DNA of 64,000 bases from Alphaproteobacteria bacterium (lineage in GTDB: Bacteria; Pseudomonadota; Alphaproteobacteria; MPNO01; UBA830): NCBI GenBank assembly GCA_965243135.1, contig OZ251539.1, positions 672,001 through 736,000 on the forward strand. Direction: 5' to 3'. The notes below the pieces were generated by a model that was not told the DNA's origin, did not search any database, and saw only the letters and a program-made list of their open reading frames with translations. Below, one piece after another: positions 2,290-27,709 of the stretch. Made by a program: the position numbers and the translations under genes. Position 1 is the stretch's first letter; each line of letters begins with the position of its first letter.

Positions 2290-2290
2290 G

Positions 2291-7173: not shown

Positions 7174-8664
<1,491 letters not shown>

Positions 8665-8739
8665 ATCTGCCGGAGCGTGATTTTCGGAGATTGGGGGTAG
8701 CGAGGGTTCCAGACGCCGTAGATTTCGCCCGAAGCCGGG

Positions 8740-9799: not shown

Positions 9800-10075
9800 A
9801 TGAGTGCCTTCGCGATCGCTAACCTCTCCGTCGCTTCCGCCAACGCCGCCGCGGCCGTCGTCGTGGCCGTCGGCGTATGGCCGCGATGGTCCGCGCCAAC
9901 GACGAACGCGGGCAACAACAGTGCGCGACGACGCAGCAGCAGAGCGCAGCCATGCCGCAACAGCGCGAAGCCGAAGAACGCCGCCACGAGGAGAACATGA
10001 CGGCGCTCAAGGCGCTGATCCGCCAGACCGCCACGCCGGAAACCGTCGCCGAACGAACGACGCCGACGGGGCGGG
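9800..10075 (+). pseudogene. Small protein with one hydrophobic segment and a coiled tail, frameshifted
   Basis: RBS GGAAAGGA, ATG 9800 (MSAFAIANLSVASANAAAAVVVAVGVW), then a frame change to AAMVRANDER...RRHEENMTALKALIRQTA. 3' end approximate. Confidence 0.5.
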
Positions 10076-10797
10076 AACGAAGGGTGCCTGACGCCCTTCC
10101 CCGTCGGCGAGACCTCGAAGTCGAGCGACTGTCGCGGTCGTGCGGGGTGCAAGTACCGGCGCCGTCGTTCGCGGCCGACCGCGGCGCCGGCGCACCTCCC
10201 GCTTCGGCGATCATGTCGAACGGGGGCCGGCGACAACGCCGCGGCGCGAAACTCGACGACCGACCTTTTCTCCGTTTCTCGCGCAAGGTATGCCGCGGAC
10301 GGCGGCCGGGAACCCGGCAGGCACCGCGGGCGTTGCCGCGTTCGTCGAGTCGCTTCCTCGGCTTCGCCGTGGGCGGCCCGCTCAAGCTCGTTCGCCGAAG
10401 AGGCCGACTTCAGGCGTTTCAGCTCGTTGCGCGCCGCCTCGGCGCGCGCGCTGCGTTTTCCGGAACGTCGCCTGCCAACCTCTACCTCCGCGCGACATTT
10501 CCGCCTCTTGGCGCGCCTCGTCCCGCCGGGCCGTTGCCGGCGGCAAAGCCCCTCGTCCGTCGGTTGCGGCAAAAAACGAGAGGCGAAGGATCCCGTGTCC
10601 GGTCCGTGGACGAAATTTTTTCGTCCCCTGGGTAGCGAACGCTTACAGACTATCAATACGAGATTCGCGAGGAGGCCGATCGTCTTGACGCGCATAGTGC
10701 GGGCGTCCCGGAACCCGAACGCCGCGCAGCGGCCGATTGCCGGCCCCGCTTGCTTCCCGCAGCCGGGCGAGGTCGTTCCGAAGACTGCGGGTAACCT

Positions 10798-12411
10798 CAG
10801 CAATTCCCGCTAAGGCTCAAAACCCTTGGAAAATATGGGGTCGGGAAAAAATTTTTCGTGGACTTTTCGAGGTGATTCGGGGCTATTTGCCTTCAAGCGG
10901 AGCATTTTTCTCTGGAAAGTGGTCCGAAGGCGAGGCGGGATTGTACCAAAATGGCCAGAATGCCAGGCATGCGCAAGACGCTCAGCGCTCCGGGGTTGCT
11001 GAAGGAAGTGCGAGCTTGTTTCGACCGTATCGAAGATCCGATTGCCAGCCGGGGGCTGAACCAGACGGACTGTCTGATGTCGGGTTTGGCGGTGTTCGGT
11101 ATGAAGTATGCGTCGCTTCTCGACGATGCCGCGCACGCCGACGAAGCGGTTCGGCACAACCTCGCGAACTTGCGTCAAGCGTGTGCCGTCGGACTCTGCG
11201 ATGCGAGAACGGCTTGACGAAGTCTGTCCGCGGCAATTGCGGCGTTGTTTCACGAAGATGTTCCAAGTTTTGCAACGAGGCAAGGGGCTGGAACAATACA
11301 CTTGTCTGAACGGGTATTACGCTCTTTCGAGGAACGGGATACTTTTCGTCGGACAAGGTGCACTGTAAAAACTGCTGCGAGAAACATCACCGCGACGGTA
11401 CGATTACCTACTACCACCAGATGTTGGGAGCCGTTCTGGTGCACCCGGAACAGAAGGAGGTTTTTCCGTTTGCACCGGAATCGATCCTGAAGGGAGACGG
11501 CGCAAAAAAGAATGATTGCGAAGCGGCGAAACGGCTTTTGAAAGATGTGCGTCGTGAACACCCGCACCTGAAGTTGATCGTGTTGGAGGATGGGCTGGCC
11601 TCAAATGGACCGCATGTCAATCTTCTCAAGGAGTTAGACATGCGTTTCATACTGGGTGCAAAGCCTGGCGACCACAAGTTCCTGTGGGTCAACAACGCGC
11701 CGTCCGTGGAGCACCGGGAGTTCACGGACGAGGACAACATACGGCACGAATTCCGGTATCTCAACGGAGTGCCTCTGAACGATACGCACTTCGACCTCAA
11801 AGTGAACTTTCACTGGGAGAAGCTTCCAAACGGCAAGAAACAACGTTTCTCCTGGGTCACGGATCTGCCAATTGACGAAGAGAACCTGATGGAGTTGATG
11901 CGCACCGGGCGGGCGCGCTGGAAGATCGAGAACGAAACTTTCAACACCCTGAAGAACCAAGGCTACTGCTTTGAGCACAACTTCGGTCACGGTAACAACA
12001 ATCTGTCGACTGTTTTCGCGTTCCTGATGATGCTAGCGTTCCTGATTGACCAGATTCAACAGCGATGTTGCAAACTGTTCCAACAGGCGCAAACGAAGGC
12101 CAAGCGGCCCATTTACTTCTGGGAAAAAGTGCGGGCATTGTTTCTCGACTACTTCCTGAAGGACTGGGAGACGCTCTACCGAATGATCGCGTTTGGACAC
12201 CGGAAAGCAGTGGGAATTCCCTACGATACCTCCTGACCCAGCACCGTGTCCGAGTGTGCTAAAGCAGGTTTTTCAGGGGAAGCAGGGTAGTCAAGGCTAT
12301 GTCGGCGCCAGGCCGAAGCGGGAAAGGTGCGTCGCGACGGCTGGTCCCTCGGTAACGATGCTATCTCGACGCGCCTTTTGCAAAGGGCGGCCACCTTAGC
12401 GGGAATTTCTG
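10798..12411 (+). mobile_element. IS element copy 1 (1614 bp, degenerate; unclassified DDE/ISNCY-like)
   Basis: Terminal inverted repeats CAGCAATTCCCGCTAAGG / CCTTAGCGGGAATTTCTG; 9-bp target duplication GGGTAACCT at 10789-10797 and 12412-12420; near-identical to 45986-47633. Confidence 0.95.
10951..12236 (+). pseudogene. DDE transposase pseudogene
   Basis: Split across ORFs 10951/11108/11358; six 5-6 bp deletions relative to the intact 46139-47458. Confidence 0.93.
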
Positions 12412-12523
12412 GGGTAACCTGATCCTGAAACTCCATGCTGGCCGCCGTACCGAATCGGCTTCCCCGGTGCGGAGCGCAGGCGGACGTGGGGAGGTGCGCG
12501 GGGATTTTGGGCGTCCGCCTCGG

Positions 12524-13987
12524 CTAAAGGGCCGACGTCCGCCAGAGATCGATAGCGCGAATGATACTTTCTTCAAGCCAGGGAGAAAAGCGATTCTCCG
12601 CCTGCTGCCTCGGTTCCCTGTAGTTGATCTGGAATACGCTGTCCGTCACAGGCTTGATCGCCCCTATCTCGCGTTCCCCCTCTTCGGTTTCGACTCTCTG
12701 GAACCAGCAAGACGAACATGCGAGCACGCCCTGATATTCCGGTCCAATCCCGTGAAACGATATCAATAATTCGCTTTGGTCGGTATTTCTCATAACCAAC
12801 CTCGCCCAAGAGCGATATGTGTGGGTATTTGCAAAATAACCAAGTTCTTTCGCTGTCTGCACGATTTGAAAGCGATAATAATGGTCATTGCTTTCGCCGT
12901 GTACGGCGCCGCCCGAAAAGAAAGTCGCATTCGTTATCAGTCCCTGCGTTTCCCTCTTCATGGTTTCCGCTATTTCGCTCAGGCGTTGAACCGTAGATTC
13001 GTGAAGCGATTTGGCGAGGTCTCGCGCAGCTTGCCATTCTTTCGCTAAAGATTGCTTCTTTTTCTGTAATTCTTTCCGAACTGCCAGAATTGCGTCCTCG
13101 GCGCGAGCTGATTTGATAACATCTTGGGCAATGCTCAAGGCTCTTATGAATTCGTCCTTTTGCAATCTTGAAAAATACTCGACCAATTGTCCGAGATCGC
13201 CCGCATCCGCAGCCTCGAGAGCTCCAATGTAAATGCTGCGCTCCCGGTCACGAACGACTAGCGGAAACCAACCATGCTTCACGAAAACCAGCGTAGCCAG
13301 CGCTCTTGCCACGCGCCCGTTCCCATCCTGAAAGGGATGAATTTGAGTGAATCTGTGATGCAGCCATGCTGCTTCCACTTCAGGTTGGACGCTGCTCCTT
13401 TCGTGATCGAGATGCATATCGATCAAACGATCCATTTCGCCGGATACGTGAATAGGCGGGCAATACTCATGAACTGCGCCATTATGCCTTTGGGGATTGT
13501 TGGGTTGTTTTTTGTACTCTCCAGAAATCAACGGGACTTGAACGGTTCTTCCCAAATTATCGACGCCTTCCACCGTAGATTGATGATTGGTAAAACGACA
13601 ATGTATTTCCTTTATATAACTTGTCGATAAACTGCGTTCTCCTTTTATGAATTCAAAAATGCCGTCGACAACGGATTCGTGATCGTTGATCATGGAAACG
13701 ACGATTTCAGGGTTTCGTGCCGCATTATGTGGAATGAGTGATGCGTCAATACCGTGTTCGATCAACAGCTGAGTGATGCCTCTATCGAGAACGTATAGGC
13801 GTTCAACCAAACCGGTTTCTATAGCCCACTCGCGCTTCAATTTTTCGTTAAATTTTTGGAACGCGTCCAATCCTTGGAGTCGGTCTCGTTGTTCTTGCCA
13901 TACGCTTGCAAGCGTTCTGAGTTCGGGTTGCGACAGTTTTTCCGGGCTAACGGTATAGTCGTCAATCGGCGTCCATCCATGGTTCAT
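12524..13987 (-). CDS. Fic-domain protein with long C-terminal extension
   Basis: Canonical HPFQDGNGRVAR motif; visibly more AT-rich than the flanks. Confidence 0.9.
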   Translation of the reverse strand: MNHGWTPIDDYTVSPEKLSQPELRTLASVWQEQRDRLQGLDAFQKFNEKLKREWAIETGLVERLYVLDRGITQLLIEHGIDASLIPHNAARNPEIVVSMINDHESVVDGIFEFIKGERSLSTSYIKEIHCRFTNHQSTVEGVDNLGRTVQVPLISGEYKKQPNNPQRHNGAVHEYCPPIHVSGEMDRLIDMHLDHERSSVQPEVEAAWLHHRFTQIHPFQDGNGRVARALATLVFVKHGWFPLVVRDRERSIYIGALEAADAGDLGQLVEYFSRLQKDEFIRALSIAQDVIKSARAEDAILAVRKELQKKKQSLAKEWQAARDLAKSLHESTVQRLSEIAETMKRETQGLITNATFFSGGAVHGESNDHYYRFQIVQTAKELGYFANTHTYRSWARLVMRNTDQSELLISFHGIGPEYQGVLACSSCWFQRVETEEGEREIGAIKPVTDSVFQINYREPRQQAENRFSPWLEESIIRAIDLWRTSAL

Positions 13988-15413
13988 GGAAGGTTCTCCA
14001 GAACAGCCATCGTCCGGTGCAAGTTATCTCTCTTCGAATCTGGAGATGCGTATCGGACGAAGAATTTCGTGCAGAAGACAATATAGATGAGATGCTTGTC
14101 CGGTCAAGGTCGGACGCTCAAGCCTGCGTCACGCTCTTCGCCGCAGGCGAGCGTCGGTGCATTCTTTCGGTCAAGGCGTCCGAGGCCGATCAACTGTGAG
14201 CGCATGGCCATCCGCAAGACGCCGAAGTGGTTCGCGGATCTCCCTGTTTTCGGAATGGTCGCATGCTTCCATGCTGTCCACGGCGGGGAAAGGGCTGAGC
14301 AAATCCGCGCGAAGGCGCGCTGCGCCTTCCGACGGTAGCTGTAAGTGCGCATTGCGAGGTATGGCGCTTCTGAAACGCGGCGTCCGTCCGTCTTTCCCGA
14401 TCGAGGATCGCTTTGCGCCATGCCGTACCCCAACCGCCAGGCGTCGACGTACATCGTGCTTGGCGACCCCGGTTCGTCGAGTAACGCTACCCGTCCTTCG
14501 GAACGGTATGGAAGCCCTGCCGCCTCGCTGTTTCCGCAATCTCCTGCTCGGAAACCACATCGTCGAGGGCGCGTACGCGCAGGGCGGCGCCGACAGCCGC
14601 CCCGCGCCTGCTCTTCAAAATCATCCGCGCTGGCAAGATGCTGGCGGCTCAGACGCTCGTCGGCTTCATCGTGCCCGAACTGCGCTTCGGGCCAGCGGAA
14701 GCGCGCAAGTCGAGGTTCGCGACGCTCTATCGTCAGGTCGTTCCGCAGGTGATGAAGGTGTGTTTTCTTCCGCTCGTCGAGACAGGACAGCATTTCCTTC
14801 GCGAAACGTCAATAGCGCTTTCCGGACTTATGGCCGGAAGGGCTTTCCGCCGTGGCGAACCGAGGTAACGGAGCAAGGATCCGGAGACGGCTCGGAGATC
14901 ATGCAGGACATCGGCATAAAAATCGTTGATGCATGCATAACCATGGCCGACATGCAGTGCGTCAAGTCCCGGTCGAGCACAGCCTCCTATGGTCTCGGAC
15001 CGAGCCGCCGCCAATTCTACAGGAGCCGTTCAGCGAGCAGGTAGCTGGCAGCGGCCGACATCCACGCGCTCGACGTCTTTGACGACGGCCGGCAAGCTGT
15101 CGTTCGCCGTCATGGAGAGCAGGCCGAAGGTTGCCTCCGCTGGGCCCCGCCAAGGGATTCGCAGGACAGGGGATTTTCAGTTCGTTCGACCATCTCGCCA
15201 GCCCGCCGGCCCGTCTCGGCATGGCGTTGCCGCTGCCCGGTTCGTAGCCGCCTCCCGTCGCTCGCCGAGACGGCCTCGTCGGCTCGGCAGCGAGAATTGT
15301 CGACAGCTCGTTTTCTCCGAGGCTGCCGACCGGTCGATGCGTTCGGAACGAATTCGCCGGGCCGTCGGGCATACGGTATGCTGGAGCGTCCCGAGACGGA
15401 AGTGACGCTCTGC

Positions 15414-17600
15414 ATGAATTCTTCGATTCCTGCCGCCGACCGCGAAGTTCTTGCCGGCCCTGTCGAGCGGGTAACCTTTCACAACGAAGAGAACGGGTAC
15501 TGCGTACTGCGCGTCAGGGCGCGAGGGCAGCGCGAGCCGGTCGCCGTCATCGGTTACGCTGCGACCGTTTCCGAGGGCGAATGGATTACCGCTTCCGGCG
15601 ATTGGGAGGAGGATCGCAAATACGGTCGGCAGTTTCGCGCCGGGTTCATAAGGGTGTCCGAACCCACGTCCGCCGACGGGATCGAGAAATATCTCCGTTC
15701 GGGCATGATCCAGGGCATCGGGCCGATCTATGCGAAGAAACTGGTGCGCGCGTTCGGCGACCGCGTGTTCGAGGTGATCGAAGAGACGCCCGAGCGCCTT
15801 CGGGAAGTGGACGGCATCGGCCCCATGCGGGCGGAAAGAATAACGGCCGCCTGGGCCGAGCAGAAGGCGGTCCGCGAAATCATGATTTTTCTGCACGAGC
15901 ACGGGGTCGGGACGGCGCGCGCGGTCCGCATCTTCAAGACCTACGGCTCCGATGCGGTCCAGGTGATGACCGTCAACCCATATCGTCTGGCGCGCGACAT
16001 TCGCGGCATCGGATTCAAGATCGCCGACGCCATCGCCATGCGGCTCGGCATAGAAAAGACTGCCGAGGTGCGAATCCGGGCCGGGATTTCCCATGCGCTC
16101 GCCGAAGCGGTGGAGGAAGGACATTGCGGCTTGCCGAAGGACGAGCTTCTTCCCTTTGCTGCGGAGCTTCTGGACGTTCCGGCGACGCTTGTCCCTTCCG
16201 CCCTCGATCTGGAACTCGGGGATGGACATGTCGTCGCCGACGAGGCCGACGGGACGCCGTGCATTTTCCTGGCGAACCTTTACCGGGCCGAGCGGATTAT
16301 CGCCGGCAAATTGCGTTCGCTTTCCGCCGGCGCGCTTCCGTGGTCGCCGATCGATCCGCATCGAGCGTTGCCGTGGCTCGAACGGCAAACCGGGTTCAGG
16401 CTTGCGGATGGCCAGAAGGAGGCCGTCCGCATGGCGTTGGCGTCGAAGGTCATGGTGGTCACCGGCGGTCCGGGCGTCGGCAAAACGACGATCGTAAATT
16501 CCATTCTTCGCATTCTGTCGATCAGGAAGGTTCGCATCGTCTTGTGCGCTCCGACCGGCCGCGCGGCCAAGCGCATGAGCGAGGTCACCGGCAAGGAAGC
16601 CAAGACCATACATCGGCTTCTCGAAGTCAACCCCAGGTCGGGCGGCTTCAGGCGGAACGCCGATAACCCGCTCGACTGCGAACTCTTGGTGGTCGACGAG
16701 ACCTCGATGGTCGACGTTCCTCTCATGCTGGCGTTGGTGAACGCGGTTCCCGACAGCGCCGCGCTGTTGATGGTCGGCGACATCGACCAACTGCCCTCGG
16801 TCGGTCCGGGACAGGTGCTTGCCGACGTCATCGGTTCCTCGGTTCTCCCGGTCGCGCATCTTGCGGAGGTGTTCCGTCAGGCGGCTCGCAGCCGCATCGT
16901 CGAAAACGCGCACCGCATCAACGAAGGGATCGTTCCCGATCTCGGCAAGCCCGACCGCGAGAGCGACTTCTATTTCGTGCCGGCGGAAAACCCGGACGCC
17001 GCGGCGTCGAGGATCCTCGATCTCGTCCGCAACCGCATACCGCAGCGTTTCGGTTTCGATCCGGTGCGCGACATCCAGGTCCTGTGCCCCATGAACCGCG
17101 GCGGATTGGGGGCCCGCTCGCTCAACGTCGAGCTGCAGGCGGCCCTGAATCCGGCCGGCGACCGCAAGGTGGAGCGTTTCGGATGGACGTTCGCGCCCGG
17201 CGACAAGGTCATGCAGATCGAGAACGACTACGACAGGGACGTCTACAACGGCGATATCGGCTACGTCGTCGATGCCGATCCCGAACTCGGCGAGGTGACG
17301 GCTGAATTCGACGGCCGCAGGGTGGTCTATCGCTTCGGCGATCTCGACATGCTGGTGCCGGCCTACGCGGTCACCATCCACAAGAGTCAGGGTTCGGAAT
17401 ATCCCGCGGTCGTCATTCCGCTCATGACGCAGCATCACGTCATGCTGCAAAGAAACCTGCTCTACACGGGCGTCACCCGAGGCAAGCGGCTGGTGGTCCT
17501 CGCCGGTCAGAGAAGGGCCGTCGCCACCGCGGTGCAGAGCGTGTCCGGGCGCCGCAGGTGGTCGAGGCTCCGGGAATGGATGGGCGGAACGGCATCCTGA
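15414..17600 (+). CDS. recD2: RecD2/TraA-like SF1B DNA helicase
   Basis: N-terminal VERVTFHNEENGY OB-like region, HhH repeats (GIGP, GIGF), Walker A GGPGVGKTT, VDETSM, GDIDQLPSVGPG, YAVTIHKSQGSEY. Confidence 0.93.
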   Translation: MNSSIPAADREVLAGPVERVTFHNEENGYCVLRVRARGQREPVAVIGYAATVSEGEWITASGDWEEDRKYGRQFRAGFIRVSEPTSADGIEKYLRSGMIQGIGPIYAKKLVRAFGDRVFEVIEETPERLREVDGIGPMRAERITAAWAEQKAVREIMIFLHEHGVGTARAVRIFKTYGSDAVQVMTVNPYRLARDIRGIGFKIADAIAMRLGIEKTAEVRIRAGISHALAEAVEEGHCGLPKDELLPFAAELLDVPATLVPSALDLELGDGHVVADEADGTPCIFLANLYRAERIIAGKLRSLSAGALPWSPIDPHRALPWLERQTGFRLADGQKEAVRMALASKVMVVTGGPGVGKTTIVNSILRILSIRKVRIVLCAPTGRAAKRMSEVTGKEAKTIHRLLEVNPRSGGFRRNADNPLDCELLVVDETSMVDVPLMLALVNAVPDSAALLMVGDIDQLPSVGPGQVLADVIGSSVLPVAHLAEVFRQAARSRIVENAHRINEGIVPDLGKPDRESDFYFVPAENPDAAASRILDLVRNRIPQRFGFDPVRDIQVLCPMNRGGLGARSLNVELQAALNPAGDRKVERFGWTFAPGDKVMQIENDYDRDVYNGDIGYVVDADPELGEVTAEFDGRRVVYRFGDLDMLVPAYAVTIHKSQGSEYPAVVIPLMTQHHVMLQRNLLYTGVTRGKRLVVLAGQRRAVATAVQSVSGRRRWSRLREWMGGTAS

Positions 17601-17865
17601 ACGGCGACCTCTCCGGCCTGCCTCTTCCTGCCGGTCCCACTCCCTGCCGCCGAGCCTCCACGCCTCCGCCTCGTGTCCTGGCGACGACGTGGATTCCGCA
17701 GGGACGCGCTTCACGCTCCTGGCCCACCGGCAGGACAACCGAGGGAACGGACTGTACGCAAGCGCCAGGAGCCGTGGGAGGTGTCGGCGCGCGCGGCGGC
17801 ACGGAGTTCGGGGATCGCAGGGAGGTTGCCGAGGCTCGCGCCGTTCTTCCTCGCCATGCGCCGGT

Positions 17866-17894
17866 TTGACGGGCGGCGGCGATGCGCCTATAGT
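17866..17894 (+). promoter_or_regulatory. Sigma70-type promoter of the four-gene ATPase/helicase operon
   Basis: TTGACG (17866-17871), 17-bp spacer, TATAGT (17889-17894), 18 nt before GTG 17913. Confidence 0.75.
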
Positions 17895-17912
17895 GACCCC
17901 AACGAGAAAATC

Positions 17913-18731
17913 GTGGAAATCAATGAAGTGACCAGTTTCGAACAAGCGTTCGGCGATGCGGAAAACGCGGCCGAAGCGGCCCGAAAGTCCGCGTCCCAGG
18001 TGGTCTCGCAGGCCAAGGCCCTGACGAAAGCCGCGCAAAGCGGCAACATCGCCGCCATCAAACGCGGCCAGGAGAAACTCAAGGAAGCCTTGGCGGAGCT
18101 TGAGCAGGAGGTTTCCAACGCCAGCGCCTGTTGGCCGTTTACGGACGAGGAAGAGAAGCGGAAATTCGACGACGGATATGCCGCCGAGCTCCAGAACGCT
18201 GCCGACGGGATCGGCCTGAAAATCTACGAACGGGACGGACTTCTGATTTCCTATCCATCCATCGTGCGCACGTTGTCGGCGGACTGCGCCGTGAGGGTGG
18301 ACAGGAAGAAGGTTTCCACGATAAGGCCGTCGTATCTTGCCGATTTTCTGCTCAAAAATCAGAACAAATCCAGCGGGTTTCCGCCGGAACGTTTTCTTGA
18401 GACGTTGCATGCCGTTTACAAGGAAGTGGTTTCCGAAGGGGCTTCGGGTCTTGCGCAGGGCAGCGGCGGCCGCGTCGTTCCGCTGGCCAGAATTTACAGG
18501 CTGATAACGGCCCTGCCGGGCGGTTCGCGGGAATACGATCGCGCGGATTTCGCTCGGGATCTGTACAAGCTCGACTCGGAGGGGATCGACCGCACCAAAA
18601 GCGGAGCCGCGGTCTCCTTTCCGTCTTCGACGGGAACCCGCCGGCGTTCGAGCGACCTGTTTTCGTTCGTCGGACCGGACGGCAATAACGTCGAGTACTA
18701 CGGCATCCGCTTCAGTGAGAACGACGCATGA
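17913..18731 (+). CDS. Hypothetical protein (N-terminal coiled coil; possible C-terminal winged-helix-like region)
   Basis: Clean ORF. Start placed at in-frame GTG 17913 because of the promoter; the stop overlaps the next start (ATGA). Confidence 0.8.
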   Translation: MEINEVTSFEQAFGDAENAAEAARKSASQVVSQAKALTKAAQSGNIAAIKRGQEKLKEALAELEQEVSNASACWPFTDEEEKRKFDDGYAAELQNAADGIGLKIYERDGLLISYPSIVRTLSADCAVRVDRKKVSTIRPSYLADFLLKNQNKSSGFPPERFLETLHAVYKEVVSEGASGLAQGSGGRVVPLARIYRLITALPGGSREYDRADFARDLYKLDSEGIDRTKSGAAVSFPSSTGTRRRSSDLFSFVGPDGNNVEYYGIRFSENDA

Positions 18732-19687
18732 ACAACGCGATATCCGGCGACGAGTGGCTTGACGTCATTGATGCGGAATATCTTTCCACCTTCGTCAGGG
18801 ACGGCGGATCCGCCGTCAAATTCGCGGTGACGGGAGAGGAACGAAGACCGTCCATATCGGAAAAGATAAAACTCAAATGCGAGGCGTCGAATTACGTTTT
18901 TGCGCAACTGAACGCCGTCGACAGCCGCATGCATATGCCGCAGGACATTTTTTTCGGACTGGCGTCCCGGATCGACTGGCGGCTATTGGCGCGCCGCGTC
19001 GTCTTGCGCCTTCTTTCGGAGACGAAGTATCGCGTCGACGGCATCGATCCCGGCGGGGCCGGCAACGTCGTCGACGCCGTAGCTTACGCCAACGGGCTTG
19101 AATCTCAAACCGTTGTCTTCGAACTTAGGAGGGCCTTGGAGAGGGAGGTATTGAAAAATCCCAATCTGGCGAAGGCGTTTCGCGGGGCCATGCATCATCT
19201 CTGCCTGATCGAGTGCGATAGCGCTGCGCCCGGGGAGTATGCCGGGCAGCCGTTGCTGGATTGGCTCACGGGCGTCAACATCCGCGTCGGCAACGTGCGC
19301 CAGTTCGGGATACATACCGGCATAAATCGAACGACGGCGCGCTATTTCGTGGAGTCGGCCTTTCACTGGGTGCGTCAGGCGGAATATTCCGGAACGGTCA
19401 TTTTTTTGGACAACAGCCGCGTGCTCTTGGCTCGCAACCCGAGAGACGGCCGACGATACTATACCAGGGCGATGACGATGGATCATTACGAATTGCTGCG
19501 CGAGTTTATCGACGACGTGGATCGATTGTCGGGAGCGTTGCTGATCGTTGCGACCGATTACGATTTCGTGGACGAGCAAGCGCCGAGGGGGTGGAGCGTC
19601 TACGACGCGCTTCGGACGAGAGTGATGGACGACGTGCGGGACAGGAACCTGGTCAATCCAGCGGCCGCGCTGGTGAGGCTTTCATAG
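18728..19687 (+). CDS. DUF2791/BrxD-like P-loop protein with degenerate Walker motifs
   Basis: GGSAVKF strand, LLDWLTG, YSGTVIFLD, YELLREFIDD, YDALRTRV resemble BrxD/DUF2791; no GxxxxGK[ST], and Walker B reads LDN. Confidence 0.72.
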   Translation: MNNAISGDEWLDVIDAEYLSTFVRDGGSAVKFAVTGEERRPSISEKIKLKCEASNYVFAQLNAVDSRMHMPQDIFFGLASRIDWRLLARRVVLRLLSETKYRVDGIDPGGAGNVVDAVAYANGLESQTVVFELRRALEREVLKNPNLAKAFRGAMHHLCLIECDSAAPGEYAGQPLLDWLTGVNIRVGNVRQFGIHTGINRTTARYFVESAFHWVRQAEYSGTVIFLDNSRVLLARNPRDGRRYYTRAMTMDHYELLREFIDDVDRLSGALLIVATDYDFVDEQAPRGWSVYDALRTRVMDDVRDRNLVNPAAALVRLS

Positions 19688-19699
19688 GGGGCCGGTCGG

Positions 19700-20962
19700 A
19701 TGCCGAACCAGGAAAACGCGACGCTGGATTCCCGTCGGGCGATCGAAGCTTTGCGCAACGGCGTTCCGAACCGGGAAGCCGTGCGCCAGTTGGGCTGCAA
19801 TCAGCCGCAGGCGATCGCCCGTTTCCGCGAGATGCTGGATCATGCTGTCGAGCGTCGCGAGTCTCCGGACCGGGGCATGGTGATTTCGGGAGATTTCGGT
19901 GCGGGAAAGTCGCACCTTCTGGGTTATCTGGAACACATGGCGCTGTCCCGGAACTTCGTTTGCAGCAGGGTGGCGATCAGCAAGGAAACGCCGTTCTACG
20001 ATCTCGGAAAGGTGTTCGCGTCCGCCGTCGAGAACGGTCGCCTGCCCGACCGGGGCGGACGCTTCGTCGAAGAGTTGGCGGCGGCTTTGAAAAGCGACCC
20101 GGACGCATGCGGGGATTTCCTCAGGTGGGCCGAGGTTGCCGCCGACGACGGACTCTTGAATCAAGTCTTTGCCGCGAGCCTGCGAGTATACGATAGAACT
20201 CAGGATTCCGAATTGAGTCACGATATCGAATCCTTTTGGGCCGGAGACAGAATGCGGACTGCGAGCATACGCGGCGGGCTCAGGCAGATCGGGGAGTCGA
20301 AAAAGTACAAGTTCCGGGCTCCGAAGGTTTCGGAACTCCCGCCTCAGCGGCTTCGGTTCGCGATCGAGCTCGTCAAATACGCAGGTTACAATGGCTGGGT
20401 CATTTTGCTGGACGAAATCGAACTTATGGGTTCGTATTCGATATTGCAGCGCGGACGTTCCTATGCGGAGGTGGCGCGATGGATGGGACTCGCCGAAGGC
20501 GAGGCGTACCCCGGGATGATCGCGGTCGGCGCGGTAACGGCGGATTTCGCGTCCGTCATCATCAGTCCCGACGGGCAGAAGAGGGACCGGGACTACATCC
20601 GTCCGAAGCTGGAAGGCAACCCCAGATTCAACGTGATTTGCGGACGGGCGGAAGCCGGCATGCGAGTGCTGGAGGACGACTGCCTGGCCTTGGAATCGCC
20701 CAGCGAAGCGGACTTGAATCAAACCGTGGAGAAGTTGCGGCTGTTGTACGAAAACGCCTATGGGTGGTCGCCGCCTATGCAGAATGCGACCATCGGAGGC
20801 GCGGGATTCCAGAGACGAATGCGACACAAGGTGCGCGCCGCGATCAACGAATGGGATTTGATCCGGCTGCATCCTGATTACGGACCGGATACGGAGGTCG
20901 ATCCTTATTCTACAGGATACGAGGAAAATTCCGATCTGGAGCGCGAATCCCGGGACGGGTAG
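19700..20962 (+). CDS. DUF2791/BrxD-like P-loop ATPase
   Basis: AIEALRNGVP N-terminus, Walker A GDFGAGKS, Walker B GWVILLDEIE. Confidence 0.82.
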   Translation: MPNQENATLDSRRAIEALRNGVPNREAVRQLGCNQPQAIARFREMLDHAVERRESPDRGMVISGDFGAGKSHLLGYLEHMALSRNFVCSRVAISKETPFYDLGKVFASAVENGRLPDRGGRFVEELAAALKSDPDACGDFLRWAEVAADDGLLNQVFAASLRVYDRTQDSELSHDIESFWAGDRMRTASIRGGLRQIGESKKYKFRAPKVSELPPQRLRFAIELVKYAGYNGWVILLDEIELMGSYSILQRGRSYAEVARWMGLAEGEAYPGMIAVGAVTADFASVIISPDGQKRDRDYIRPKLEGNPRFNVICGRAEAGMRVLEDDCLALESPSEADLNQTVEKLRLLYENAYGWSPPMQNATIGGAGFQRRMRHKVRAAINEWDLIRLHPDYGPDTEVDPYSTGYEENSDLERESRDG

Positions 20963-20985
20963 CTTCCGGCCGGCCGGAACGCAGC

Positions 20986-23013
20986 GTGCCCATACCCTTC
21001 CGCGAGGAAAGCGAGTCCGCCGGCGTCGTGGCGTGGCTGCGGGTCGTCGAAGACGGGCGCGGCGTTCGGGCCGCTCTTTTCGAAACTACGGTCGCCGGGG
21101 AGCCGCTGGGGTATTGTTTCGCCGGGGCGGGAGAAGACCGGCTGGATGACCGCGCCGCGGCCGGCGCAAGATTGGCGAAATCGCTGTTCCGCGCGTCCCC
21201 GAATTCGCCGGTTCTGCTGCTGGGATCGGCGGACGATCCGCTTCCAGGGGCGGACGAGATAGGCGTGCCGTTCGGTCGCGTTCGACCGGCATGGCCGCCG
21301 CCCGCGGTCGCCGCCCCTGCGAACTGCGCCGACGGCCTGTCGTGGTCGACGGAGCCGCCGCGACCGGCATCGGAGGCCGCCGGAGCGCTTCGCGAAATCG
21401 GGAAGCGGGCCGATCCGTTCGAACCGCTCGAGCGGACGGCCAAGGGGCTCGAAGAGGCGTTCGGCGATCCGCAAGTTCGGACCCTGACCGGCCTTCAGGG
21501 CCTGACGACGGTCATTTCGTTGCCGCCGCCCCCTGAAGCCCCGGGAGCGCCGGATACCTTCGGGGAATCGTCTTTCCGATTTCCGCCGGAGAGCGCGGTC
21601 GGCCGCGGCCTGGCGGAACGGTTGTGGAGGATTCTGGCCAAGCCCCGGAGAATCCCGCTCTTGGATACGCGCCTGGAATGGCCGGCGACCCTTATGCCGT
21701 TTCAGCTCGACGGAGTGCGCGCGTTGATCGAGATGGATCGCCTGCTTCTGTCGGACGACATGGGGCTGGGCAAGACCGTGCAAGCCGTGGCGGCGTTACG
21801 GCTTCTCAAGCTGGGCGGACGGATCCGGTCGAGCCTTGTGGTCGCTCCCGCGAGCGTGCTCGATCAGTGGAGGCGGGAGATCGCGAAGTGGGCGCCGGAA
21901 CTGTCGGCGATCATCGTCCGAGGCTCGGCCGAGGATCGAGCTTGGCAATGGAAGGCCGCGACCGATTGTACGCTGACGAGTTACGAAGTCTTGCGTTTCG
22001 ACGCGGGCGATCTGCGCAAGCTCAGGGCAACGCCGTGGGACGTCGTCGTGTTGGACGAGGCGCAGCGGATCAAGAACCGAAACGACACCAGCGAAGCCGT
22101 GAAGAACGTTCCGAGGCGCCGTTCGTGGGCGTTGACGGGCACTCCCATCGAGAATCACGAGGACGACCTGGCTTCCATCATGGAGTTCGTCGACTGCGAC
22201 GGAAAAACGCCGCCCAAGCGTTACTTTCCCGGCGCGGCGCTGCTGACGCGGCATCGGGAAGTGCAGCTCCGGCGAAAGAAGAGCGACGTATTGAAGGAGC
22301 TGCCTCCCAAACTGGAGACCAAATTGGCGATTGCGTTGCATCGGGAGCAGTGGGCCAGTTACGAAAAGGCGGAACGCGAAGGGATCGTATTTCTCAAGTC
22401 GCTCGGAAAAGAAGTCGGCATCGGCCACATGCTCGAACTGATTACCCGCCTGAAGCAGATTTGCAACGCCGATCCCAGAACGGGAGCCTCAAGCAAGCTG
22501 GACAATATACACGACAGACTGCGGGAGTTGACGGCGCAAGGCCACAAGGCTCTGGTTTTTTCTCAATACGTCGGCGACATTTCGGGCGTGGCCGCCGCCG
22601 CCAGGCGCCTGCGCGAGTTCAATCCGCTCGTTCTGACGGGCGACACTCCTCTGGAGGAGCGTTCGTCCCTATTGGATCGATTCAAGACCCGGGACGAGCA
22701 CAAGGCGATCGTCATATCGTTGCGGGCGGGCGGCCTCGGGCTTAATTTGCAGGAGGCCTCCTACGTTTTCCATCTGGATCGCTGGTGGAATCCCGCCGTC
22801 GAACGACAGGCGGAGGACAGGAGCCATCGTCTCGGGCAGAAGGTCAAGGTGAACGTGATCAAGTACTCCTGCGTCGGCACGATCGAGGAACGCATAGACC
22901 GAATTCTGGAGCAAAAGCAGAAGTTGTTCGAGAAGGTCGTCGACGACGTCTCGCTGGACCTGTCTGCGCGACTCAGCCGGGAGGAAATGCTGGAATTGTT
23001 TGGACTGCGTTAG
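20986..23013 (+). CDS. SNF2-family helicase/translocase with unknown N-terminal region
   Basis: DDMGLGKT, LDEAQRIKN, LTGTPIEN, ALVFSQY, GGLGLNLQ, DRWWNPAVERQAEDRSHRLGQ. Confidence 0.92.
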   Translation: MPIPFREESESAGVVAWLRVVEDGRGVRAALFETTVAGEPLGYCFAGAGEDRLDDRAAAGARLAKSLFRASPNSPVLLLGSADDPLPGADEIGVPFGRVRPAWPPPAVAAPANCADGLSWSTEPPRPASEAAGALREIGKRADPFEPLERTAKGLEEAFGDPQVRTLTGLQGLTTVISLPPPPEAPGAPDTFGESSFRFPPESAVGRGLAERLWRILAKPRRIPLLDTRLEWPATLMPFQLDGVRALIEMDRLLLSDDMGLGKTVQAVAALRLLKLGGRIRSSLVVAPASVLDQWRREIAKWAPELSAIIVRGSAEDRAWQWKAATDCTLTSYEVLRFDAGDLRKLRATPWDVVVLDEAQRIKNRNDTSEAVKNVPRRRSWALTGTPIENHEDDLASIMEFVDCDGKTPPKRYFPGAALLTRHREVQLRRKKSDVLKELPPKLETKLAIALHREQWASYEKAEREGIVFLKSLGKEVGIGHMLELITRLKQICNADPRTGASSKLDNIHDRLRELTAQGHKALVFSQYVGDISGVAAAARRLREFNPLVLTGDTPLEERSSLLDRFKTRDEHKAIVISLRAGGLGLNLQEASYVFHLDRWWNPAVERQAEDRSHRLGQKVKVNVIKYSCVGTIEERIDRILEQKQKLFEKVVDDVSLDLSARLSREEMLELFGLR

Positions 23014-23106
23014 CGTGGAAGGCGTCGCCGCCGACTTGGCCCGCAGGCGGGCGGACGCTCCGATGGCGGGTTGCCGCGGCGCGGGGCACCTTTCGTCAAA
23101 TAATAG

Positions 23107-23135
23107 TTGATTCCGCGAATCGGCGAGGCTACTAT
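23107..23135 (+). promoter_or_regulatory. Sigma70-type promoter, probably giving a leaderless transposase mRNA
   Basis: TTGATT (23107-23112), 17-bp spacer, TACTAT (23130-23135), then 6 nt before ATG 23142; no Shine-Dalgarno. Confidence 0.65.
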
Positions 23136-23141
23136 CGGCGT

Positions 23142-25300
23142 ATGCAAGTTGGACTTCACCGTTTCCATGCGGACAGCATCGAGTGGCTCCGAACTGCGGT
23201 CGCCGAAGGCGGTCGCACCCGGCGTCAGCTGGCGCAAGAGCTGTGCGAGCGCGAGAACTGGCGCAACGAGAAGGGCGAACTTTGCCTCGCCTCGGCGCGG
23301 CGCGTTCTGCCGAAGCTCGCCGGGAAACTCGGGATCGCGTTGCCGCCGCCGCGGGAGCGCCTGCCGCAGAAGGCGCCGACCCGGGATTTTCCGGATCTGC
23401 CGCTTCGCTGCAGTCTGACGGAGATCGGCGAGGTCGCGCTGGAGCCGGTTTCGGGGAGCGCCGACAGGCAACGGTGGCGTTCGATGATGGAGACCCATCA
23501 TCCGCAGCGCTGGATGCGTCCGCCGGGCGCGCAAAGGTGTTACTGGATCGCGTCGTCCCGCCATGGCCGGCTGGGCGGCATCGGTTTCTGCGCCGCCGGC
23601 TGGCACCAGAAAGCGCGCGACGAGTTCGTCGGCTGGTCGGCGGACGCGCGGGTCGCCAACCTTCAGCGGATGGTCAACAACAACCGATTTCTCCTGTTGC
23701 CGGGGGTGCGCGTGCACGGGCTTGCGTCGCGCGTTCTCGACCTCGCGGCGGCGCAATTGCCCGGCGACTGGGAAGCCGCCTACGGCGTGCGTCCGCTGAT
23801 GGCTTACACTTACGTCTCTCCCGACCATTCGGGCGCCTGCTATCGCGCGGCAGGGTGGGAGCGCTGCGGCAGACCGACTTCGGGGCTGCCGCCGGGCGCC
23901 GAGGCGAGGGGCGTCGGGCGGTCGGTCTGGATGAAGCCGTTGGCCGCCGACTGGAAGGAGCGGCTGCGCCGGAAGCCGGAGCGGACGCTCGGCCTCGCCC
24001 CCGAGGCACCTCCGTCCGACGATTGGGCGGAACGGGAATACGGTCGCGGAACGCACCCGGACGGACGCATTCGCGGTCGCATGGTACGAATGGGGCGCGC
24101 GTGGGAGGAACGTCCCGGCCAGCCGGTACCGGTAATCTTCCCGGACAAGGAAGATCAGGACGCGGCCTACCGGCTGCTGTCGAACCCGAGGGTGAACGTG
24201 GAGCACGTTCTCGAGTCGCACGAGGAATGCATGGTCGAGCGCTGCCGCAGGGAACGCGTGGTTCTGGCGGTTCAGGATACGACGATCCTGAACTGCAACG
24301 GCCTGCAAGCCGCCGCCGGTCTGGCGCCGCTTGGCGGCGGCGGGTCGGGAACCAAAGGCGTCGCCGCCCATTTCGGACTTGCGATCACGACCGCAGGACG
24401 CCCGCTCGGGGTCTTCGAGGCCGCCGTGCGCGACGACAAGGACGAAAGCGTCCGCTGGCTCAAGCACTTCGACAAGGCGCAGGAGATTGCGCGCGCCTGT
24501 CCCGGCACGCGGGTCGTTGCCGTGTGCGACCGGGAAGGAGACATCTGGGAACTGCTGTCGAGGGCGGTCGCGGCGGGCGCCGGCCTGGTGGTGCGCACCT
24601 GCCGCTCGAAGCGGCGGCGCGTGCTGTGCGAGGACGGCGGCAAAAAGGGTCTTTGGGACTACATGGCGGAACGGCCGGTGCTGAGATCGCTGAACCTCGC
24701 CGCCTGCGGCGGCGGGAAAACGCGCAAGAAACGCGAGGCGACGCTCGACATCCGCGCCGCCCGCGTCCGGCTCGCGCCGCCCGGCGACAGGACCGGCGAC
24801 GCGCCTCTCTCCATGCTCGCCGTGTCGGTCGCAGGACCGCAAGATCGGCTGTTGCTCGCCACCGAGGGAAAGACCGAAAACGCGATACGCATTGTCGAAT
24901 GGTACGAACGGCGCTGGACGCTTGAAGAATACTTCAAGACCCTCAAGTCCGGCATGGGCGTCGAAGACCGGCGATTCGACGACGCCGACGACCTTCGAAA
25001 GTGCCTCGCCTTCGACGCGGTCACCGCATGCCGGGTCTTCGACCTCCGGGCGCGGGACAGGCCGGACGCTCCCGCCGCCGAAGTCCGCGGACGAAGATGA
25101 AATCGCGGCGCTTCGCCCCGCCGAACGAGGCATGGTCAAGAGCGGGAAGCCGGCCGAAAACCTCGACGGCCGAACCTTCGTGGTCGGCGCAGGACGGGCT
25201 TTCGTCTCAACGCCGGCCGTTGCCCGGAACCATCCGGCGAGGCCGCGGCTGCCTTGAGGCCTGCGTTCCGCCAAGCGCCGCGGAACGACGACATGCCCGA
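23142..25300 (+). pseudogene. DUF4338 (DruA-like) domain fused to IS4/Tn5-like transposase, degenerate
   Basis: N-half has RDEFVGWS...NNNRFLLLP..V..LASRVL...YRAAGW (DUF4338). C-half has AAYRLLSN, VLAVQDTT, VCDREGD, WYERRWTLEEYFKTLKSG (IS4 DDE/YREK). The 3' end is frameshifted over three frames; right end not found. Confidence 0.85.
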
Positions 25301-25608
25301 GGATTCGACGATGGGGCGTTGAAAGGCCGGGCATCGCCGCGGCTTTGGCTCGGCATCTGACCGGCCGGCGTTCGAAGACGGAAATTGCGGAGGGCGGGGC
25401 GGCTTCGTTCGTCCGGCGGCGAGCGACGGAGCGTCAACCGAATGGATGATTCCCGGAAAACGGACGACGGATTCTTTCGGGTCCGCGCCGCAGGTTTCGG
25501 ACGACGGAGCGTTGCGGCCGCGGGACCAGGCCGTTGCGGACCGGTCGACGTCTTTACGCTTGGAGATTTCGCGTCCGGTCCGCGCCGTTCGGCGGCGAAC
25601 CGATCGTA

Positions 25609-26520
25609 ATGGGCGGGGATTCTTCGTTGCAGGTCTCGGCGCGCCGCCTCAGATCCGTCTGGACGGGGCTGCCGGCGAATCTCAGAGGCATTCTGTGGCT
25701 GAGCGCCGGCGCGCTGTTCTTCGCCGTCGTCGACGTGTTCGTGAAGACGCTCGGGCGCAAGTTCGACGCGATCGAGATCACGTTCTTTCGCTACGCCACC
25801 GGACTGATCGTTCTCGCCCCGGTGTTTCTGAGAATGACTCGGGCGGATTTCAGGACTCGAAAAATCGGCTTGCACATCATGCGCATGGGATGCGCGTTCG
25901 CGGCGCAACTGATGGTCATCGTTTCGGTCATTTATCTTCCGCTCGCGGACGCGACCGCGTTCATGTTTTCGAAGCCGATCTTCACCACGGTGGTGGCCGT
26001 CATTCTTCTGCGCGAACTCGTCGGTGCCCGGCGCTGGATAGCGACGGTCACGGGATTCGCGGGCGTTCTCGTGATGTTGCGTCCCGGCTCCGGGGGAGTC
26101 GACGTCATCGCGGTCGTCGCGGTGGCGGCGGCGTTGACCTTCGCCGTCGCCAACGTCTTGATCCGCATACTTGCGCGGACCGAGTCGACGAAACGCATCC
26201 TGTTCTACTATCATGTAGGCGGCGTCGCCCTGTTCACTGGACCCGCCGCGTGGGTCTGGAGCGGTCCGGTCGGAATCGAATGGCTTTTGCTCGCCTGCGT
26301 CGGCGGGCTGACGACAGCGGGAATGGTGTGTTTCGTGCGGGCCTTCTCCGTGGGCGAGGCGAACGCTGTCGGGCCAGCCGAAAACATGCGGTTGATCTAC
26401 GCCGCGCTCTTCGGGTTTCTTCTGTTTTCCGAAGTGCCCTCGGCGTGGAGCGTCGCGGGCGTCCTCATCATCGCCGGGAGCACGTTCTACATCGCGCGGG
26501 ACGAAGCGCGGAAGAAGTAG
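25609..26520 (+). CDS. DMT/EamA-family transporter
   Basis: About ten hydrophobic segments; LPLADATA...LLRELVGARRW motif. Confidence 0.88.
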   Translation: MGGDSSLQVSARRLRSVWTGLPANLRGILWLSAGALFFAVVDVFVKTLGRKFDAIEITFFRYATGLIVLAPVFLRMTRADFRTRKIGLHIMRMGCAFAAQLMVIVSVIYLPLADATAFMFSKPIFTTVVAVILLRELVGARRWIATVTGFAGVLVMLRPGSGGVDVIAVVAVAAALTFAVANVLIRILARTESTKRILFYYHVGGVALFTGPAAWVWSGPVGIEWLLLACVGGLTTAGMVCFVRAFSVGEANAVGPAENMRLIYAALFGFLLFSEVPSAWSVAGVLIIAGSTFYIARDEARKK

Positions 26521-26527
26521 GAGCGGT

Positions 26528-27709
26528 TCAACGCGCCGGCGTCAGGCGCAGGATCTTTCCGTTCCGTTCGTCGGTGACCGCATAGACCGCGCCCTCCGGA
26601 CCGACGGCCACGTCGCGGATGCGGCGACCGAGGGATTCCAGAAGGCGTTCTTCGCGCACGACTTTGCGTCCGGCAAGTTCCAGCCGGACCAGCGCCCGCG
26701 AGCGCAATCCGCTGATCAGAAGATTGCCTTTCCACCCGGAGAACAGATCGCCTCGGTAGAACGCCATGCCGCCGGGAGCGATTACCGGCGTCCAGACCGC
26801 GATCGGATCTTCCATCCCCGCCATTCGTTTCTGGCCGCTGCCGACCAGTTCGCCCGAGTATTCGAGTCCGTGGGACACGACCGGCCAGCCGTAGTTTCGT
26901 CCGGGTTCCGGAACGTTGAGCTCGTCTCCGCCGCGCGGACCGTGCTCGATCGTCCACAACTTGCCGGTGACCGGATGAATGGCCGCCCCCTGAATGTTGC
27001 GGTGGCCGTAGGACCAGATTTCCGGCAACGCTCCGGAGCGGTTCGCGAAAGGGTTGTCGGCGGGCACGGAACCGTCGGGCCGGAGGCGAACGACCTTGCC
27101 GAGATGGGACGTGAGGTCTTGGGCGCGCACGCGGTAGGAACGGCGCGCGCGGTCCCCCAGCGTCACGAACATCGCGCCGTCCGGCGCGAACGCGATGCGC
27201 GAGCCGTAATGACGGACTCCCCGAAGTCTTGGCATCTGCCGAAAGACGACTTCGACGTCGGAAAGCGCCGATCCCTCCCTGTCCAGCCTGCCGCGCGCGA
27301 CCGCGGTCGTGTTGGCGCCGTCGGTTCCCGGCTCCGTATAGGAGATGTAGACGAGGCGGTTCTCGCCGAAGTCAGGATGCAGCGTCACGTCCAGCAATCC
27401 GCCCTGACCGGCGTCGCGCACCCGGGGGACGCCGGCTACCGGTTCCGACAGCTTGCCGTCGCCGGTGACGATTCTGAGGCGGCCCGGCTTTTCCGTCACG
27501 ATCATCCGGCCGTCGGGAAGGAAGTCGAGGCCCCACGGCTGGTTCAGTTCGTCCGTCAGCGCGACGACCTCGATTCGGCCTTTTTCCGTGTCCAGGACGC
27601 TGCCGGAGGCGGGCGTCGCCGCCAGCAGCGCCGCAGCGAAGAGCGCCGGAAAGAACGCGTTCCTCGCGCTGTCGCCACGCGGGGCAAAATGCCGGATTAT
27701 GGAAGGCAT
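26528..27709 (-). CDS. PQQ-dependent soluble aldose sugar dehydrogenase (YliI-like)
   Basis: Signal peptide; PWGLDFLPDG, GQGGLLDV, HYGSRI, IWSYGHRNIQG, EHGPRGGDELN. Start uncertain. Confidence 0.88.
   Translation of the reverse strand: MPSIIRHFAPRGDSARNAFFPALFAAALLAATPASGSVLDTEKGRIEVVALTDELNQPWGLDFLPDGRMIVTEKPGRLRIVTGDGKLSEPVAGVPRVRDAGQGGLLDVTLHPDFGENRLVYISYTEPGTDGANTTAVARGRLDREGSALSDVEVVFRQMPRLRGVRHYGSRIAFAPDGAMFVTLGDRARRSYRVRAQDLTSHLGKVVRLRPDGSVPADNPFANRSGALPEIWSYGHRNIQGAAIHPVTGKLWTIEHGPRGGDELNVPEPGRNYGWPVVSHGLEYSGELVGSGQKRMAGMEDPIAVWTPVIAPGGMAFYRGDLFSGWKGNLLISGLRSRALVRLELAGRKVVREERLLESLGRRIRDVAVGPEGAVYAVTDERNGKILRLTPAR

Follow-up and report, generated by a model that had tools for sequence, protein, structure and literature searches.

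The current work concerns a 64,000-nucleotide (nt) stretch of alphaproteobacterial DNA (contig OZ251539.1, positions 672,001 to 736,000; this whole stretch is referred to as the window), and in particular a cassette of four consecutive genes on its forward strand, designated g1 to g4, which encode a protein of an unnamed family (g1), two proteins matching the BrxC_BrxD family (g2 and g3) and an SNF2 helicase (g4). Cassettes with the same gene order were retrieved from six named phyla, and it is held with moderate confidence that they represent an anti-phage or anti-plasmid module which is independent of BREX (bacteriophage exclusion) and has spread horizontally, and in which a pair of AAA+ ATPases, one live and one dead, acts together with g1 to load or activate an SNF2 translocase bearing a probably non-catalytic reader domain. 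This reading is based on the conservation of the unit, the depth of its core, its accessory or mobile pattern of spread, the defence-type nature of its parts and its independence from BREX.

Layout and conservation of the cassette

Long spurious open reading frames (ORFs) are frequent in the window because of its high G+C content (~63%); the four ORFs of the cassette, all of which are intact, are set apart from other ORFs by homology. The initial annotation of this DNA had described four tightly packed, uninterrupted genes, and both their coordinates (Table 1) and their spacing were confirmed, with a 4-nt overlap between g1 and g2, a 12-nt gap between g2 and g3 and a 23-nt gap between g3 and g4. 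Its calls for the products also proved correct, in that g2 and g3 score above the cut-off of the BrxC_BrxD family, g4 is an SNF2 helicase and g1 is a hypothetical protein. Considering that homologues of g1 begin with M-x-SFEQ, the GTG codon at 17928 is most likely the start of this gene, the GTG at 17913 being the alternative.

The promoter motif TTGACG-17-TATAGT that had been proposed ahead of the genes is present, position 17866, given as the beginning of the feature, falling on its -35 hexamer and not on a codon. It matches the sigma-70-like pattern at 10 of 12 positions and is the sole such site in 17400-23400; shuffled sequence yields 1.0 ± 0.9 promoter-like sites, and the count by itself is therefore no more than expected by chance. 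The position of the motif alone, on the right strand and in a 330-nt gap directly upstream of g1, would favour a promoter.

With each species represented by a single genome, a scan returned 232 relatives of g1, from which 80 loci were kept, belonging to Pseudomonadota (32), Chloroflexota (27), Acidobacteriota (11), Binatota (7), Thermodesulfobacteriota (1) and Gemmatimonadota (1), together with one unplaced record. The order g1-g2-g3-g4 is constant in 71 of these 80 loci, with near-constant spacing in 70, so that the synteny check suggested at the outset came out in favour of a genuine unit; this four-gene arrangement is far beyond chance. The nine loci without the full set comprise one cut at a contig end (L064), L013 and seven that lack g4. 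Decay of the cassette was seen in L079 (11765-16221), where g3 is split and two 441-amino-acid (aa) ORFs lie between g2, g3 and g4, and in L013 (10939-12638), where other sequence takes the place of g2 and g3 and only a truncated g4 remains. No fifth gene is common within ±10 kb of the cassette (962 flank ORFs at 78 loci), the largest flank cluster being a solute-binding protein present at 15 of the 78 loci. The pairwise distances of the five parts compared are correlated with each other (Spearman 0.63-0.85, 40 rows).

The depth of this association was apparent from a distant branch of g1 (~35% identity in g1), for which 404 relatives were found on metagenome contigs, 80 loci were kept and neighbours were sought with the window's own proteins as queries. 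In this branch g2 comes next in all 51 loci with at least 1.1 kb of downstream sequence and g3 follows in all 35 loci with at least 2.4 kb, while an SNF2 core was detected in only 12 of the 23 loci with at least 4.6 kb. Therefore, the triad g1-g2-g3 is regarded as the invariant core; the SNF2 motor is a frequent partner of it, and the endonuclease V (EndoV)-like domain at the N-terminus of g4 is a clade-specific, fast-evolving addition. The SNF2 matches of the distant branch begin at residue 190-230, meaning that the N-terminal domain of g4 is not common to the branch, and at one locus (L147) the helicase frame opens directly after g3, leaving no space for such a domain. A substitute fourth gene was looked for in the 11 distant loci without an SNF2 core, and none was common beyond close kin. 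Consequently, the proposal of a stand-alone machine holds for a self-contained, conserved module, but has to be amended in that the invariant part is g1-g2-g3 and the SNF2 protein is not always present.

Table 1 Coordinates of the cassette and of other features mentioned in the text (positions in the window unless stated otherwise)
Feature	Position	Strand	Size	Remarks
g1	17928-18731	+	267 aa	frame open from 17673; alternative start 17913
g2	18728-19687	+	319 aa	degenerate paralogue of BrxD-type AAA+ ATPases (putative pseudo-ATPase)
g3	19700-20962	+	420 aa	BrxD/PF10923-family AAA+ ATPase; acidic C-terminal tail
g4	20986-23013	+	675 aa	SNF2 helicase
g4 N-terminal domain	20986-21681	+	aa 1-232	predicted RNase H-like fold, EndoV/PIWI/UvrC-C type
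g4 SNF2 helicase core	21682-23013	+	aa ~233-675	Pfam match and motifs in translation
sigma-70-like promoter motif TTGACG-17-TATAGT	17866-17894	+		read in sequence
NYN-domain ORF	8740-9162	-	140 aa	insertion; part of Pfam profile only
DDE_Tnp_1 transposase ORF	11358-12236	+		insertion
Fic/DOC protein	12524-13987	-	487 aa	insertion; PADLOC SoFic 1.5e-20, PDC-S04 1.6e-22
RecD2	15297-17600			insertion, directly upstream of cassette; TIGR01448, E 1e-260
IS4-family transposase	~23100-25100	+		insertion; NF033590, E 1.9e-54
second PF10923 module, same genome	G000:C1 ~3304170-3310490 (L084 7170-13491)	+		outside the window

The encoded proteins

The family to which g2 and g3 were assigned is PF10923 (BrxC_BrxD, formerly DUF2791), a P-loop family with a gathering cut-off of 22.2 bits. 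The match of g3 reaches 61.1 bits (E 1.2e-16), and that of g2 reaches 35.6 bits (E 6.7e-9) and covers profile positions 191-332 only. The Walker A motif (GDFGxGKSH) and Walker B motif (LLDEIEL) of g3 are both invariant in 32 sequences and conform to the patterns of active ORC/Cdc6-type AAA+ proteins (GxxxxGK[ST] and hhhhDE), whereas g2 conforms to neither: in 32 aligned sequences, a GK[ST] P-loop is missing and the Walker-B-like stretch is VILLDN, with D-N instead of D-E. The Walker B segment of g2 aligns with that of g3 (profile comparison, E 1e-3), and a second alignment, collinear though weak, places the P-loop of a BrxD-like protein on a g2 segment devoid of GK[ST]. Because the P-loop is missing, the Walker B stretch ends in LLDN and these segments align with g3 and with the BrxD-like protein, g2 is taken to be a degenerate paralogue and, as judged from its sequence, a non-working ATPase. 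Thus, the earlier call of two BrxD/DUF2791-like ATPases is correct as to the family, though only one of the two appears to be a live enzyme. In PADLOC, g3 matches BrxD (6.6e-14) and SngB (2.2e-6, 25 bits, N-terminal 80 residues only), and the scores of g2 and g3 against the NCBIfam BrxD equivalog NF033438 (33.4 and 52.5 bits, respectively) are far from its cut-off of 350 bits.

The product of g4 is classified as an SNF2-family helicase on the basis of its Pfam domains SNF2-rel_dom (E 7.2e-45, 153.7 bits) and Helicase_C (E 6.4e-19, 68.7 bits) and of the intact motifs I (DDMGLGKT), II (DEAQ) and VI (within the stretch QAEDRSHRLGQ) in its translation. Its top PADLOC matches are ZorD (2.5e-76), DpdE (1.3e-62) and DrmD (6.5e-41), and SngC is not among the matches listed for it (25 of 44 PADLOC families). 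An in-frame stop was read at codon 529 of g4 in L030; in-frame stops were also read in g4 of L050 and L070, where the starts were probably set too far upstream.

The N-terminal domain of g4 was modelled separately with AF2 (first 232 residues; predicted local distance difference test (pLDDT) 83, predicted TM-score (pTM) 0.81), resulting in a beta-beta-beta-alpha-beta arrangement which, on this predicted model, is RNase H-like. Structural comparison with VIA-align placed it closest to EndoV (3goc_B, Z 10.6, root-mean-square deviation 4.1, 150 residues aligned), Argonaute PIWI domains (Z 8.5-10) and the C-terminal half of UvrC (Z 8.9), while Foldseek retrieved EndoV and UvrC at marginal E values (1e-3 to 2e-2, prob ~1). 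The likeness concerns the predicted fold of residues ~10-170; the sequence identity to EndoV, UvrC and PIWI proteins is 6-15%, the domain is fused to an SNF2 motor, and g4 has no MID or PAZ domain. Among 40 sequences, acidic residues are conserved at position 84 (40/40), position 146 (39/40) and position 39 (35/40), and R19 and R150 are also conserved. Active RNase H-like nucleases carry their first catalytic Asp in strand 1. This strand of the g4 domain (residues 14-23) holds no conserved acidic residue, the positions W17, L18 and R19 being found there instead in the 40 sequences; the domain thus lacks the canonical first Asp of the active site and is probably non-catalytic, its modelled fold and its residues being more in keeping with a nucleic-acid reader than with a nuclease. 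An inactive PIWI domain serving as a sensor is found in short prokaryotic Argonautes.

It follows that the absence of a recognisable nuclease, as noted initially, stands with respect to the catalytic Asp, but not with respect to the fold, since an RNase H-like domain is predicted where none had been suspected. With a mean pairwise identity of 0.35, this domain evolves much faster than g1-g3 (0.57-0.61) or the SNF2 core (0.71). The N-terminus of g4 had been put forward as either an effector or a sensor; 'sensor' fits a fast-evolving RNase H-like domain better than 'effector'. A restriction-like system, in which this domain would be an active, non-canonical nickase carried along by the SNF2 motor, could draw on the predicted EndoV/PIWI/UvrC-C fold with its Z score of up to 10.6 and on the near-invariant acidic residues and conserved arginines; considering that strand 1 is without a conserved acid, that the domain is missing from the distant branch, where one SNF2 gene begins at the helicase core, and that no gene for a self-protecting modification is linked, it is considered very unlikely.

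As for g1, no Pfam family was matched at its cut-off, and no match was obtained in PADLOC, NCBIfam or PHROGs. The family, which consists of stand-alone proteins of ~265 aa, is large: 517 relatives are present in a database clustered at 90%, the named ones of which are all annotated as 'hypothetical protein' and none of which has a Pfam domain, and matches extend to 792 clusters (50% identity) at E≤1e-3 and 559 at E≤1e-10. The AF2 model (pLDDT 76, pTM 0.61) consists of a long helical hairpin (residues 4-67), two further helices and a basic alpha/beta C-terminal part with the conserved basic stretches RVDRKK and TGTRRR. Searching with this model, Foldseek gave nothing at E≤1e-3, VIA-align matched the helical hairpin alone, which is a common arrangement, and the ESM Atlas returned unnamed clusters only, the C-terminal part giving nothing among its named clusters. 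Sequence-based comparison of the g1, g2 and g3 profiles with solved structures produced nothing below E 0.01. A TerB domain was not detected in g1 at the sequence level, there being no Pfam match at E≤0.01 and no PADLOC match, although a remote TerB-like fold of its helical N-terminus is conceivable. A comparison of g1 with the N-terminal domain of g4 showed no relation. That g1 binds DNA is a guess.

Relation to known systems and possible mode of action

No full-system match was obtained with PADLOC 2.0, as the initial annotation had anticipated in calling the system undescribed, and full-text literature searches, covering main texts, yielded no description of this gene set; for SCO6262 and SCO1167 and their neighbours they yielded gene lists only. 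PglZ (PF08665) has no match in the whole genome, and of five other carrier genomes one encodes it, >1.6 Mb from the cassette, and four do not; therefore, the cassette is not BREX. A combination of PglZ, BrxC and a modification gene in one locus, which defines BREX, was not observed here, nor does any of these belong to the conserved flanks. No TerB or methylase gene is linked to the cassette either, and the reported absence of pglZ, methylase and TerB is thereby upheld.

The most likely design of the cassette resembles those of Shango and of BrxD-BrxHI, the ATPase-helicase pair of type 2 BREX (Pgl). In a BREX survey (PMC12839542), BrxD and BrxHI are presented as a tightly linked dyad that is accessory to the BREX core, with BrxD proposed as the loader or activator of the helicase. 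What the cassette shares with this dyad is a PF10923 ATPase of the ORC/Cdc6 type tightly linked to a superfamily 2 (SF2) helicase; it differs in having no PglZ, PglX, PglW or BrxC, in the distance of g2 and g3 from the BrxD equivalog cut-off, and in its helicase, which is of the SNF2 and not the Lhr/Ski2-like type. Shango, according to two descriptions (bioRxiv 10.1101/2022.11.11.516204 and 10.1101/2022.05.11.491447), consists of the TerB-like SngA, the ATPase SngB and the DEAD/DEAH helicase SngC, and thus shows the same succession of a small non-enzymatic protein, an ATPase and an SF2 helicase, with neither nuclease nor methylase (bioRxiv 10.1101/2022.11.11.516204); the SngB match of g3 is weak (E 2.2e-6). 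Nevertheless, the TerB domain of SngA is not found in g1 by Pfam or PADLOC, BrxD is a better match to g3 than SngB is, the cassette includes the additional pseudo-ATPase g2, and its helicase is SNF2-type with an RNase H-like N-terminal domain rather than DEAD/DEAH.

A second PF10923 module of the same genome (Table 1) provides a further comparison. It is made up of three tandem BrxD-like genes (481, 436 and 497 aa) followed by a 737-aa DEAD/DEAH helicase, the PADLOC matches of which are BrxHI (5.6e-69) and SngC (1.9e-54), and the second of its three ATPases is matched by the g3 profile (probability 95%, E 3.9e-8). Like the cassette, it is a stand-alone run of PF10923 paralogues with an SF2 helicase in a genome devoid of PglZ; the differences are that nothing like g1 is encoded there, that the helicase belongs to the DEAD/DEAH type, and that all three of its ATPase genes match the P-loop region of PF10923. 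Accordingly, runs of BrxD-type ATPases accompanied by an SF2 helicase make up a broader class, the known members of which are BrxD-BrxHI and Shango, and the cassette is set apart by g1 in the place of TerB, the pseudo-ATPase, the SNF2-type motor and the RNase H-like domain on this motor. In a 2016 sponge metagenome survey (PMC5099237), PF10923 is counted among Pgl genes and is reported as missing from seawater; cassettes such as g1-g4 could contribute to counts of this kind.

SNF2 helicases are also components of Zorya I (ZorD), Dpd (DpdE), DISARM (DrmD) and BREX type 3 (BrxHII), and the core of g4 matches ZorD, DpdE and DrmD in PADLOC. The resemblance is confined to the helicase core, the N-terminal domain being another one and none of the partner genes being linked. 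Specifically, g4 scores 150 bits against 1500 for the ZorD equivalog, with no ZorA, ZorB or ZorC among the flanks; 70.6 and 78.8 bits against cut-offs of 610 and 950 for DrmD, the DISARM partner genes being absent from the flanks; and 64.1 bits against 500 for DpdE, with no dpd cluster genes among the flanks.

On the reading favoured here, we infer a defensive role, the formation of a complex and the following order of events. The products of g2 and g3 would assemble into a hetero-oligomer, which together with g1, as an adaptor or DNA binder, would recognise invading or replicating foreign DNA and use ATP to load or activate the SNF2 motor g4. The N-terminal domain of g4 might then grip a feature of the DNA, such as a nick, flap, lesion or modified base, and translocation would either strip or block the replication or transcription machinery of the invader or pass the DNA on to host nucleases, the cassette itself presumably not cutting. 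A more general version of this model, which is possible and is put forward tentatively, holds that g1, the pseudo-ATPase and the BrxD-like ATPase constitute a widespread loader or sensor core (at least 792 clusters at 50% identity) that recruits interchangeable SF2 motors, and that in the present case an SNF2 motor with a dead EndoV/PIWI-like domain reads the DNA of the invader, which would amount to a non-cutting exclusion immunity. If true, this would assign to BrxD-type ATPases a general role as helicase loaders and define a new class of non-cutting immunity.

The cassette presents the pairing of BrxD-type ATPases with linked helicases that is found in type 2 BREX and Shango in a minimal, BREX-free form. 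It is convenient for testing because a live and a dead ATPase occur side by side naturally, together with a partner not met before (g1) and an SNF2 motor with an RNase H-like reader.

It was also considered that the cassette is a helper with no activity of its own, serving another system in trans as BrxD-BrxHI does in type 2 BREX, or a regulator of a restriction system. The accessory status of that dyad and the dispensability of the SNF2 partner at many loci are compatible with such a role, as is a gene encoding AspBHI-N and HNH_2 domains, of restriction type, that lies 240-280 bp upstream of g1 on the same strand in 12 Caldilineaceae loci (L024-L047), its product being ~630 aa (full length) in L028 and L029 and ~295 aa in most others. 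However, this neighbour is confined to a single clade of kin, no adjoining partner gene is conserved across lineages, and neither this genome nor four of the five other carriers encode PglZ; a helper role is accordingly judged quite unlikely.

Spread and genomic setting

The distribution of the cassette is patchy, g1 being present in one of 60 related genomes and in none of 400 genomes sampled from the phylum. On a concatenated tree (40 rows), the phylum labels require 8 changes against a minimum of 4, and a gammaproteobacterial row is placed, with support, inside Vicinamibacterales, which is suggestive of horizontal transfer between phyla, bearing in mind that bins can be mixed. In three genomes of the same genus, the aldehyde dehydrogenase gene (window 7084-8664) lies only 40-70 bp from the EamA gene (in the window from 25534 on); the segment 8665-25533 is therefore a strain-specific insertion of ~16.9 kb that carries the cassette. 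The association with defence islands expected at the outset is modest: in this genome the cassette shares its insertion with insertion sequence (IS) elements and a SoFic-like gene, but flanks elsewhere are mostly metabolic.

Several observations weigh against a defence module. The nearest neighbours elsewhere are for the most part metabolic genes, as determined for 136 proteins (two genes per side) at 34 of 44 dereplicated loci, the figures being raw counts without a baseline; the families encountered include SBP_bac_5, SDR, PIN, HNH_2 and DDE transposases (3 each) and Xre/MbcA antitoxins (2), besides single matches to restriction-modification or candidate systems, and these flanks give a modest signal of defence. 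Relatives of g1 were not found in collections of plasmids, phages or viral contigs. An identity of 55-75% between phyla is more than would be expected of a defence gene; recent transfer, perhaps within one habitat, would be needed to account for it. The cassette contains no toxin and no clear nuclease effector. Finally, the SNF2 gene is missing from seven of the 80 close loci (L015, L058 and five loci of Vicinamibacteria, which are kin) and from 11 of the 23 distant ones, so that the motor step of the proposed mechanism cannot be universal. Should the cassette nonetheless prove defensive, it would be an added system, common in uncultured bacteria, in which a PIWI/EndoV-type fold is joined to a motor of the chromatin-remodeller type; no copy having been found in the collections of plasmids, phages and viral contigs, island-based screens may have overlooked it for this reason.

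The housekeeping character of most flanks would also suit an accessory module for DNA repair or genome maintenance, in which the AAA+ pair would load a motor whose EndoV/UvrC-like domain senses lesions or stalled forks, akin to remodelling of the Mfd or RapA type. The closest folds to the g4 N-terminal domain are indeed those of the repair enzymes EndoV and UvrC, the cassette proteins are strongly conserved, and in this genome a RecD2 gene lies directly upstream. The last point is not borne out at other loci: RecD2 was tried as a member of the system (tblastn, 80 loci) and rejected as not linked to the cassette elsewhere, only two of the 80 loci giving matches, which are weak, partial and located downstream. 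A repair function is, in addition, difficult to reconcile with the very patchy occurrence and the spread across phyla, with a lesion-reading domain that is the least conserved part (0.35 identity) and is not common to the distant branch, and with the missing first catalytic Asp; it is therefore considered unlikely.

The IS elements that flank the cassette in this genome, together with a faint P-loop match of the g3 profile to TnsC (E 0.033), raise the question of whether the genes could be a mobile element's own machinery, for instance an AAA+ protein that selects targets as TnsC does, or an initiator of replication. This is highly improbable, in view of the lack of any conserved transposase, integrase or replication gene (DDE families account for 3 of the 136 flank proteins) and of any copy on plasmids, in phages or on viral contigs in the collections searched.

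The defence reading having been set against these alternatives, the remaining content of the insertion can be summarised as follows. The NYN-domain ORF is probably a fragment, since only part of the Pfam profile is matched, and the Fic gene is situated in a region of lower G+C (0.51 for 12001-14000). In the IS4-family transposase, an N-terminal domain matching Pfam DruA/DUF4338 (E ~2e-19) precedes the Tnp_DNA_bind and DDE domains, and the insertion also carries a 449-aa ORF to which no family was assigned.

Fragmentary contigs of four metagenome runs, aligned to 8000-27000, contain parts of the cassette at 97-100% identity. Four runs labelled as sponge metagenome and originating from one study, of which one (X5) is among the four aligned, contain 26-49% of the sampled words of this stretch; no RNA run carrying it is present among the 12 runs listed. 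The depth of contigs covering 9.3-12.4 kb is far above that of the rest in the four aligned runs, as is expected for a repeated element, and in one run a contig joins position 8732 to 12412, which suggests a related strain without the IS-rich part.

Outside the insertion, the window encodes on the forward strand (922-5809) a Metallophos phosphoesterase and a 1178-aa AAA_27 ATPase, which form an SbcCD-like pair, the ATPase having a weak PADLOC match to LmuB (4.1e-12).

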